From the NCBI RefSeq assembly GCF_016026235.1, contig NZ_CP065613.1: 64,000 nucleotides of DNA; one strand, 5' to 3'. The number at the start of each line of letters is the position of its first letter. Positions within the stretch are counted from its first letter, which is position 1. Positions 53,101-56,100 of this stretch are shown piece by piece. This DNA comes from Escherichia coli. GTDB lineage: Bacteria > Pseudomonadota > Gammaproteobacteria > Enterobacterales > Enterobacteriaceae. Made by a program: the position numbers.

Positions 53101-56100
53101 CCCCCGAACCACGGGTGCAAAGCCATTCTGGCTGGCGGGTAGCATGTCGTTATCAGTATAGAGACGCGCGCCGCGGATTTGCGTACTGTCGAATATATCA
53201 CTCGCCGTCCACGTATCGCCGATCATAATCTGGCTTCTTAACGCAGCAATATCGCGCTGTAACCAGGTGCTGATGGAGTTGTATTCCGCACGACCATCGG
53301 TGGTGTTTAACGTGCTGTAATTGCGTAATCGCCACGGTCCAATATTTAGCCCATTGCGCAGATTGAGATAGCTTGTATTTGTCTCTTGTGATCCATAATC
53401 CGAACGGAGAGTATGCGAACCAGAAAAATCGTAGTTGATGGTGAGCGCATTAACCCCCTCATCCCAACGCGTGGGGCTTATATAATCGTAAGCCATCGCG
53501 TCCATGTAGATTTGGGGAATAGATATATTCAGCTGAAGTTTATCACTGTCCAGTTGCCAGGATGAACCTTCAATACGTGGCGCAGGATCCAGACAGACCG
53601 TTTCATCCACCCCATTGAGCGATTTCAGTGCATCAACTTTTACCCCAAAGGAGGTCAATGTCTTTTTAATGGCAACAAAACAGGCATGCAAATCAGAATC
53701 GGGATTATCCTGAACAAAGGTAACATCCTGACGTTCAAACATTTTCCCGTTAATAAAAATATCAACGCTATAGACGCCGGGAGGAATCAAGTTTGCCCGG
53801 TTAAACTGGCGAATATCTACCCCTGATTGATGGTCAATTTCCAGTAGCGCCGGATTGAACACACTGACCTCGGCCATAAGGCTTTGCGAGAAAATCAGAA
53901 ACGTCCCCGCCGTCAGCCCAACCGCAATTCTGGTCGTAACCATAATACGCCTATCCTTATGCAATGCTTACAGCGGCATTTTTATCGGTTCGCTTACTGC
54001 ACCGTAATCATTAATAAATCGCCAAATCATTTGGCTGCCCGCAGAGTTAGCAGGCAGGGGTAAAGTGAGCGTTTCAAAAGGACGGATCATATTGAGAGGC
54101 ACATCATGGCCATCCACTATGACATCCATCACGCTGATATGAATCGGGTTGGGATTCTCTGCAATTAAGTTTCGCCCTTCTCGATGCCACTTCACTTTCG
54201 GTGCGGCATCTTCGGGAATCAGACGAATGCTTGCCGGTCGCCAGAACAGTTTGATTCGCGTTTTGACAGCGATTTCCAGCGAGTTCTCTGCTTTGTTGCT
54301 TGCAGAGGGTGGAATATTTTTAATATTCAGCCAAAAAACAGACTCACGATCCTCAGGTAATGACACACCTTTGGTGTGAATAATGCGTAATACTTTTTCT
54401 TGCGCAGGTTCTAACCGCGAAACCGGAGGAATAACCGTAAATGGCGCTTTGTTTTTATCATCTTTATTAAAAGGATCCACCCATGCCTGTATGAGATAAG
54501 GGATTTTTTCTTCCTTACTAAATACAGAAATAGATTTATCTGAGTTATTACACAAGTAAACAACTCGTGTACCACCAATGACAACACCTGCATAAGTTAA
54601 TACTGGTTGACCTAAAAACAGGCTAAATATAACAGCGATAAATAATTTGTACCACATGGTTGTTTTAAAGAGCCTCATTAAACAACTTTTTCTGGACATA
54701 ACGACTCCCTAGCCAAAGCCAACTGAATAAAAAGGCCCTTGATAAATTATTTCTTATATTCGATGGTAAATTGTGAATCAGCGTTCGCCGTACCCGCCGT
54801 TACGGTCGCATTTGTTGCAACATAGCGTGCGATAAACTTCATTTCAGCAGTGCCATCAGCTTCGATAGCGGTATAGGCGGAATCGTTATAGAGTTTAACC
54901 TGAGAATTATCGGACTGGTTAAAAATACGAATACCTACGCCAGTAGCAACTATTGCAGCTCCTGTGCCAGTATAATCACCCGGATCGCTTGCAGTAATTG
55001 GTGTACCTACTTTCAGGTCACCGTCTCCGCCAGGCGCTTCAGTACCATCGAAACGAACGGCTGCCTGAGTATAGGTTGCCGGACATTTTTCCAGTTTAAT
55101 ACTAAATTGTTGTGGTGATGCCATACTTCCTACCCCGGAAAATGCACTTTTGCTGACCTTACCAAGTGGAACAGTTTGATCGGCGGTATCTGAGGTAACT
55201 TCACAAGTACTGTCGACTATTTCACCAACAAAGTGAACAACACCATCCTCTGCGAGTGCATGCCCAGCCAGCATTAAAGATGCCAGCGTGAATGCACCGC
55301 CAATAATATTACGCTTCATAGAAACTCCATTGATATGATATATCCTTTACCATGAATCATCACTTATATTAATAAGTGTATTTTTGATTCAAAGGAATAG
55401 TACACCAAAGAGACGGCTTTATCTAAAAATAATATTAATTACGCAAAAATAAAATATAAATTTATTGTTTAAATATTATTTAAACAGTAAAAAATCAAGT
55501 TTGTTATCAGACATTAATGATAATTCAGAATATATTTATATAGAAAGATAGATGAATTTATTGATGTCAGTTATAAAAAAGGGCCACCGGTCGGCAGTAA
55601 TGCCGATCAGTTAAGGATCAGTTGACCGATCCAGTGGCTGTGTAAGAATCCGGAAACGCTCACTTGTTTCCGGATTTTTTTATGCACATTGGACAGGCTC
55701 TTGATCTGGTATCCCGTTACGATTCTCTGCGTAACCCACTGACTTCTCTGGGGGATTACCTCGACCCCGAACTCATCTCTCGTTGCCTTGCCGAATCAGG
55801 TACTGTAACGCTACGCAAGCGCCGTCTTCCCCTCGAAATGATGGTCTGGTGTATTGTTGGCATGGCGCTTGAGCGTAAAGAACCTCTTCACCAGATTGTG
55901 AATCGCCTGGACATCATGCTGCCGGGCAATCGCCCCTTCGTTGCCCCCAGTGCCGTTATTCAGGCCCGCCAGCGCCTGGGAAGTGAGGCTGTCCGCCGCG
56001 TGTTCACGAAAACAGCGCAGCTCTGGCATAACGCCACGCCGCATCCGCACTGGTGCGGCCTGACCCTGCTGGCCATCGATGGTGTGTTCTGGCGCACACC

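Follow-up and report, generated by a model that had tools for sequence, protein, structure and literature searches.

A probable target-driven insertion of IS4 into the glmS terminator bordering the lpf-O113 fimbrial operon of Escherichia coli

Does a copy of the insertion sequence (IS) IS4 located directly upstream from a fimbrial operon in Escherichia coli alter the expression of that operon, or is its position explained by something other than the fimbrial promoter? This question is raised by a 64,000-nucleotide stretch of contig NZ_CP065613.1 (RefSeq assembly GCF_016026235.1; the whole stretch is hereafter referred to as the window), in which the interval 55320-55597 extends from the start codon of lpfA-O113 (hereafter referred to as lpfA), the gene for the major subunit of long polar fimbriae, to the first base of IS4 (55598). 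A preliminary description treated the whole of this interval as a fimbrial promoter region typical of those silenced by H-NS, and suggested that the junction with IS4 might change expression, as in the bgl operon, and that the operon, with its broken usher, might be doubly inactivated or decaying. We consider it very probable that the insertion was near-neutral and target-driven, that it occurred in the glmS terminator bordering an intact lpf control region, and that the IS4 copy has since become defective. The features surrounding the junction are as follows:

55320-55573, minus strand: complete native upstream (regulatory) region of lpfA, AT-rich, with a G+C content of 22% and equal to the IS4-free allele
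55574-55597: left half of the split glmS terminator, comprising the A-tract, the outer stem GGGC and the left copy of a 13-bp repeat (55585-55597)
55598-57022, plus strand: IS4, 1425 bp (canonical length 1426 bp), with terminal inverted repeats at 55598-55615 and 57005-57022
57023-57046: right half of the split glmS terminator, comprising the right copy of the 13-bp repeat (57023-57035), the outer stem CCC and the T-tract
57059-58888, minus strand: glmS, transcribed towards lpfA

A 13-bp sequence, CACCGGTCGGCAG, is repeated directly and without mismatch on the two sides of IS4 (55585-55597 and 57023-57035). The removal of the element and of one copy of this repeat yielded the empty site AAAAAAGGGCCACCGGTCGGCAGCCCTTTTTT (in longer context, TATAAAAAAGGGCCACCGGTCGGCAGCCCTTTTTTATC), which, on the glmS strand, folds into a hairpin of 16 bp, with U6 directly after it (-24.5 kcal/mol, z -5.5, none of 200 shuffled sequences being as good). 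This hairpin begins 15 nt past the glmS stop codon and lies between an A-tract and a T-tract. The rebuilt site has the structure of an intrinsic (Rho-independent) terminator for glmS, at which termination is predicted. IS4 lies in the centre of the hairpin AAAAAAGGGC-CACCGGTCGGCAG-CCCTTTTTT, in the loop and inner stem, the central 13 bp having been duplicated, and the glmS strand no longer carries the native hairpin. The final 24 bp of the interval (55574-55597) are glmS terminator DNA, not fimbrial promoter DNA, and the designation of the interval as a fimbrial promoter region holds for 55320-55573.

Comparison with IS-free alleles, as suggested in the preliminary description, was performed on sequence. 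Of 5426 complete E. coli genomes, 1922 contained the empty site with a query coverage of at least 80%. The best match was that of FDAARGOS_943, which is 99.8% identical at the site, and colinear and 99.9% identical over the entire window. A Shigella origin for the window was considered and set aside, given this match to an E. coli genome. The 278 bp separating IS4 from the lpfA start codon are base-for-base identical in the window and in FDAARGOS_943, the closest difference to the interval being that at 55155, within lpfA. As this sequence is the same with and without IS4, no regulatory DNA has been lost, rearranged or interrupted.

IS4 was also found at the glmS terminator position in six other complete genomes, with three duplication alleles and in both orientations:

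E10 and STEC17-190: IS4 in the window orientation, at the same nucleotides, duplication CACCGGTCGGCAG
21AR0303: IS4 in the window orientation, at the same nucleotides, duplication CGCCGGTCGGCAG
RMDEC465: IS4 in the window orientation, at the same nucleotides, duplication CGCCCGTCGGCAG
CUVM3 (L011) and CPww7: IS4 inverted, in the same glmS terminator, 12-bp duplication TGCCGACCGGTG

The alleles and orientations observed indicate at least four independent IS4 insertions at the glmS terminator. Other IS4 copies lie at tynA/feaB (in both orientations), accA/ldcC, pdxK/crr and htpX/yebQ, all in an arrangement of A-tract, hairpin and T-tract at the 3' ends of genes; these four other sites fold at -16 to -23 kcal/mol, with the duplication centred on the loop. 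The duplication was 11-13 bp long at eight other sites, the total sample of IS4 target sites comprising 11 sites. The targets of IS4 are said to follow the rule AAA-N20-TTT, and this motif spanned the duplication in seven of the eight reconstructed sites checked (the exception being the intragenic rcdA site), as it does in the reconstructed site of the window. Marked specificity in the target arms of IS4 has been described (PMC2266710). The position of IS4 is thus explained by the target preference of the element, because independent insertions have recurred at this terminator and similar targets are used elsewhere. In the literature searched, no mention was found of the glmS terminator of lpf-O113-bearing strains as a hot spot for IS4.

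A landing zone a few tens of base pairs past the glmS stop codon, in or at the terminator, is shared with Tn7. This transposon inserts about 20 bp past the stop codon, in the glmS terminator, a "safe haven" in which glmS is spared (PMC2918618, referring to Gay et al. 1986), and it requires no particular sequence at the point of insertion (PMC2918618). The IS4 duplication corresponds to positions 24-36 past the stop codon. Nevertheless, the two elements differ in how they reach this zone: Tn7 is guided by the binding of TnsD within glmS, its insertions having a single orientation and a 5-bp duplication, whereas IS4 recognises the hairpin region itself, and inserts in both orientations with a duplication of 12-13 bp. 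The sequence to which TnsD binds, conserved at the 3' end of glmS and serving for the recognition of attTn7, is present in the window, the last 41 bases compared (the TnsD/attTn7 recognition region) being identical to those of K-12 MG1655. The terminator, by contrast, differs between the lpf-bearing haplotype and the attTn7 region of K-12, and sequence comparison assigns the IS4-prone hairpin to the lpf-bearing haplotype. In K-12 MG1655, from which the lpf island is absent, the glmS terminator reads GCCCTGCGTAAGCGGGGCATTTTT (L015, 1000-1045, versus 57023-57061 in the window).

IS4 is the founding element of the IS4 family. When aligned with 12 annotated copies, the copy in the window differed from 11 of them by 4-12 bases (>99% identity). 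It shares with known IS4 its length (1425 versus 1426 bp), the 18-bp imperfect terminal repeats (TAATGCCGATCAGTTAAG and TAATGCCAGTCAGTTAAG), a duplication within the range of 11-13 bp, a single open reading frame (ORF) of the DDE type and the pseudo-palindrome AAA-N20-TTT in its target. Unlike known IS4, it does not have an intact DDE ORF of 442 amino acids, and it carries a single private substitution (A to G, at 56930):

55682-57009, plus strand: reading frame of the IS4 transposase, disrupted at 56467-56471 through the loss of 1 bp (A6 to A5)

Translation of the transposase ends after codon 271 of 442, and both fragments match the NCBIfam model NF033592. The A6 run is kept in all 12 other IS4 copies compared, and A5 was found in the window copy alone. 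By these sequence features, the element is to be classed as IS4 itself, in a defective copy, rather than as another element. The A6-to-A5 deletion and the substitution at 56930 are all that distinguishes it from the copy found at tynA/feaB in the E. coli O121 strain 201805972.

We then consider the signals for transcription at the junction, of which three lie within the ends of IS4:

55622-55649, plus strand: promoter-like site for the IS4 transposase, TTGACC-16-AAGAAT with TG, pointing away from lpfA
55644-55686, plus strand: hairpin close to the left IS4 end, with a T7 run after it (-22.8 kcal/mol, z -7.1), terminator-like for read-in from the left
56985-57018, minus strand: hairpin near the right end of IS4, with an 11-bp stem (57018-56993), followed by TCTTTTTC (-18.7 kcal/mol, z -5.9)

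The transposase is encoded on the plus strand, divergent from lpfA, consistent with the claim that IS4 abuts the region in the opposite orientation, and its promoter-like site is the sole such site near the junction. No outward promoter was detected, in that no promoter-like site was present on the minus strand in 55200-57200 at 9/12 matches, a consensus scan being weak evidence; likewise, no hybrid promoter was found across the IS4 junction at 8/12 matches, in a lenient scan that also constitutes weak evidence. On the glmS strand, the tail following the right-end hairpin is UCUUUUUC, and this hairpin probably replaces the split glmS terminator; the left-end hairpin would do likewise in inverted insertions. 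The left hairpin overlaps the -10 element of the transposase promoter-like site, so the hairpin would form in read-in transcripts but not in the transcript of IS4 itself, from which the left arm would be missing. The transcription units glmU-glmS and lpfABCD share the same direction. A hairpin and the remaining T-tract (55597-55584) still lie between IS4 and the AT-rich tract, and any glmS transcript escaping termination would have to traverse 1.4 kb of antisense IS4, and then this junction hairpin and T-tract, before reaching lpf. With these elements on its path, the insulation of lpf from glmS is probably kept. No known RNA element was found in 54600-57300 with Rfam (E≤1), the one match, to mir-4869, being at chance level (20.5 bits, versus a gathering score of 70).

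The G+C content of the sequence upstream from lpfA is 21.9% over 55320-55584 and 24.5% over 55320-55597, versus a mean of 50.7% for the window. The 55320-55584 tract is the 265-bp stretch with the lowest G+C content in the whole window; values of 24% or less were obtained for just 0.08% of 265-bp segments, and all segments below 30% overlap the 55320-55597 region. The AT-richness of the tract, already described for the approximately 265 bp upstream from the major pilin gene, is therefore real rather than a chance fluctuation. Conserved blocks are present in this tract across the four alleles compared. Its sigma-70 matches are weak (8/12), the most conserved being TTTAGA-19-TACTAT, at 55427-55397 on the minus strand; matches of this quality are uninformative in DNA this AT-rich, and the lpfA promoter was therefore not assigned, no convincing candidate having emerged from either the strict or the lenient consensus scans. 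A site aimed at IS4 on the plus strand within the same tract (55508-55536, CAGACA-17-TATATT, 9/12) is probably a chance match. A mapped promoter or transcription start for lpf2 or lpf-O113 was not found in the literature searched, in which bile-salt induction of lpf2 was found.

Silencing of the lpf-O113 operon by H-NS is plausible, given the composition of the tract and three near-matches, in the 278 bp, to the high-affinity motif TCGATAAATT, versus approximately 0.4 expected at the window-wide rate; this enrichment is expected from composition alone, and was not used as proof of binding. The related lpf1 operon is under the control of H-NS and Ler, according to papers cited in PMC5357955. 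No H-NS data for lpf2 or lpf-O113 were found in the literature searched, in which work on H-NS and Ler was limited to lpf1. The locus resembles bgl, with its activation by IS1 and IS5, in that an IS lies upstream from an AT-rich, possibly H-NS-bound, horizontally acquired operon. In bgl, the IS lands within the upstream silencer, close to the promoter and CAP site, and breaks H-NS silencing. Here, unlike in bgl, IS4 lies beyond the AT-rich tract, in the terminator of the neighbouring gene; it is not inside a silencer, and no regulatory DNA is interrupted.

We weighed the possibility that IS4, in its position beside an H-NS-silenced promoter, changes lpf expression, either by bgl-like activation or by a second inactivation, against these findings. 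The extreme AT-richness of the tract, its H-NS motif near-matches and the control of lpf1 by H-NS and Ler (papers cited in PMC5357955) are all consistent with such an effect, and the divergent transposase promoter, located at a distance of about 50 bp from the A-tract, might in theory affect local supercoiling. However, the element is located outside the tract, at the glmS terminator and 278 bp from the lpfA start codon, and the upstream region is the same as that of the near-isogenic IS4-free allele, with no outward or hybrid promoter predicted. A hairpin and T-tract still separate IS4 from the tract, the site is explained by target preference, and both orientations occur. As for a second inactivation, nothing in lpf is interrupted. 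We therefore regard a change in lpf expression as quite improbable: the idea of a bgl-like junction finds no support in the sequence, and that of a double inactivation is not upheld. An effect on glmS itself is unlikely. If glmS were what matters, the split terminator would leave the glmUS mRNA, the message for an essential enzyme, with an altered 3' end and thus an altered stability or level, and might affect use of the Tn7 attachment site. Such an effect would fit the destruction of the native terminator on the glmS strand and the location of the IS4 duplication beside the insertion point of Tn7 (about 20 bp past the stop codon; PMC2918618), but IS4 supplies a strong hairpin in its place, with a U-rich tail, 41-66 nt further on, and the glmS coding sequence and TnsD-binding region are unchanged. 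The lack of a sequence requirement for Tn7 at its insertion point (PMC2918618) also weighs against an effect on attachment, and the persistence of insertions in both orientations in natural isolates argues for little cost.

It is highly improbable that the recurrent replacement of the terminator by the end hairpins of IS4 alters glmS 3'-end formation, or lpf silencing or insulation, and is under selection. An assembly artefact, with a collapsed or misplaced repeat at the junction, is barely credible: IS elements are a frequent cause of misassembly and this IS4 copy has a homopolymer-length difference, but the junctions are clean, the 13-bp duplication is perfect and of a length typical for IS4, and the same junctions are present in six independently assembled complete genomes. 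Misassembly was rejected on the basis of the perfect duplication and these shared junctions. The following points nonetheless weigh against a near-neutral, target-driven insertion of a copy that is now defective. Termination at the end hairpins of IS4 is a prediction from structure; the lpfA promoter was not placed, the only matches being weak (8/12); a long-range effect may be exerted through H-NS filament boundaries, supercoiling from the transposase promoter or antisense read-through; and a sequencing error could account for the frameshift in the IS4 homopolymer.

The near-neutral, target-driven insertion that we favour would have occurred as follows. IS4 would have transposed into the intrinsic, bidirectional-looking hairpin of the glmS terminator, which forms the upstream boundary of lpfABCD, the site being chosen through the preference of the element for a G+C hairpin between an A-tract and a T-tract, with the fimbrial promoter irrelevant to this choice. 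Insertion led to duplication of the 13 bp at the hairpin centre, and the 278 bp upstream from lpfA and the whole of glmS remained unchanged. Transcripts of glmS would now most likely stop at the hairpin inside the right end of IS4, and lpf would remain insulated, its expression most likely unchanged. A later 1-bp deletion would have disabled the IS4 transposase and, separately, a nonsense mutation has cost the lpf operon its usher. All the features involved are of known kinds, and the event is a textbook target-driven IS insertion in a "safe" intergenic terminator. The inward-facing, terminator-like hairpins of IS4 itself may explain why such insertions are tolerated. In lpf-O113-bearing strains, IS4 may be encountered either way round in the glmS/attTn7 region, with consequences for the typing of lpfA by polymerase chain reaction and for checks of Tn7-based integration.

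The gene order at the locus is glmS, lpfA-B-C-D, pstS, and the operon is of the lpf-O113, or lpf2, type of long polar fimbriae, with the following components:

54747-55319, minus strand: lpfA-O113, major fimbrial subunit, intact, 190 amino acids; NCBIfam NF011817, 376 bits, above cut-off, and RefSeq annotation of the identical allele
53968-54699, minus strand: lpfB-O113, chaperone, intact, 243 amino acids; NCBIfam NF011818, 507 bits, above cut-off
51421-53943, minus strand: lpfC-O113, usher, pseudogene with an amber codon (E467*); each half fits usher models end to end
50337-51410, minus strand: lpfD-O113-type minor subunit/adhesin, intact, 357 amino acids; best NCBIfam matches to fimbrial tip StgD/LpfD models, both below cut-offs

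These four genes with NCBIfam matches form one transcription unit of the chaperone-usher type, and bear RefSeq names in colinear loci. The major subunit and chaperone scored above the curated cut-offs, unlike the tip subunit and both fragments of the usher, which scored below them; the name lpfD-O113 is taken from the annotation of the colinear E10 locus, with which identity is 95.5%. The known lpf-O113/lpf2 operon (OI-154) has the same order between glmS and pstS, and the proteins match RefSeq lpf-O113 annotations, but the usher gene of the window differs in being a pseudogene. By comparison with the intact 840-amino acid allele of the 99.9% identical genome, lpfC carries a single change, GAG to TAG, at 52543-52545 (E467*), in agreement with the description of the usher as broken. 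In FDAARGOS_943, the usher is intact and lpfD is split by IS2. The operon has thus been damaged independently in two close lineages, which supports the suggestion that it is decaying. IS4 can be set apart from this process, because no lpf sequence is interrupted by it, and the neighbouring fimbrial operon would be decaying for a reason unrelated to IS4. FDAARGOS_943 (L002, 1802-4211) has, in addition to the IS2 in lpfD, a second IS2 in bglH, neither of which is present in the window. The annotation of the same genome lists yidE and yidB as pseudogenes containing internal stops; their counterparts in the window lie at approximately 3170-4840 and 15630-16030.

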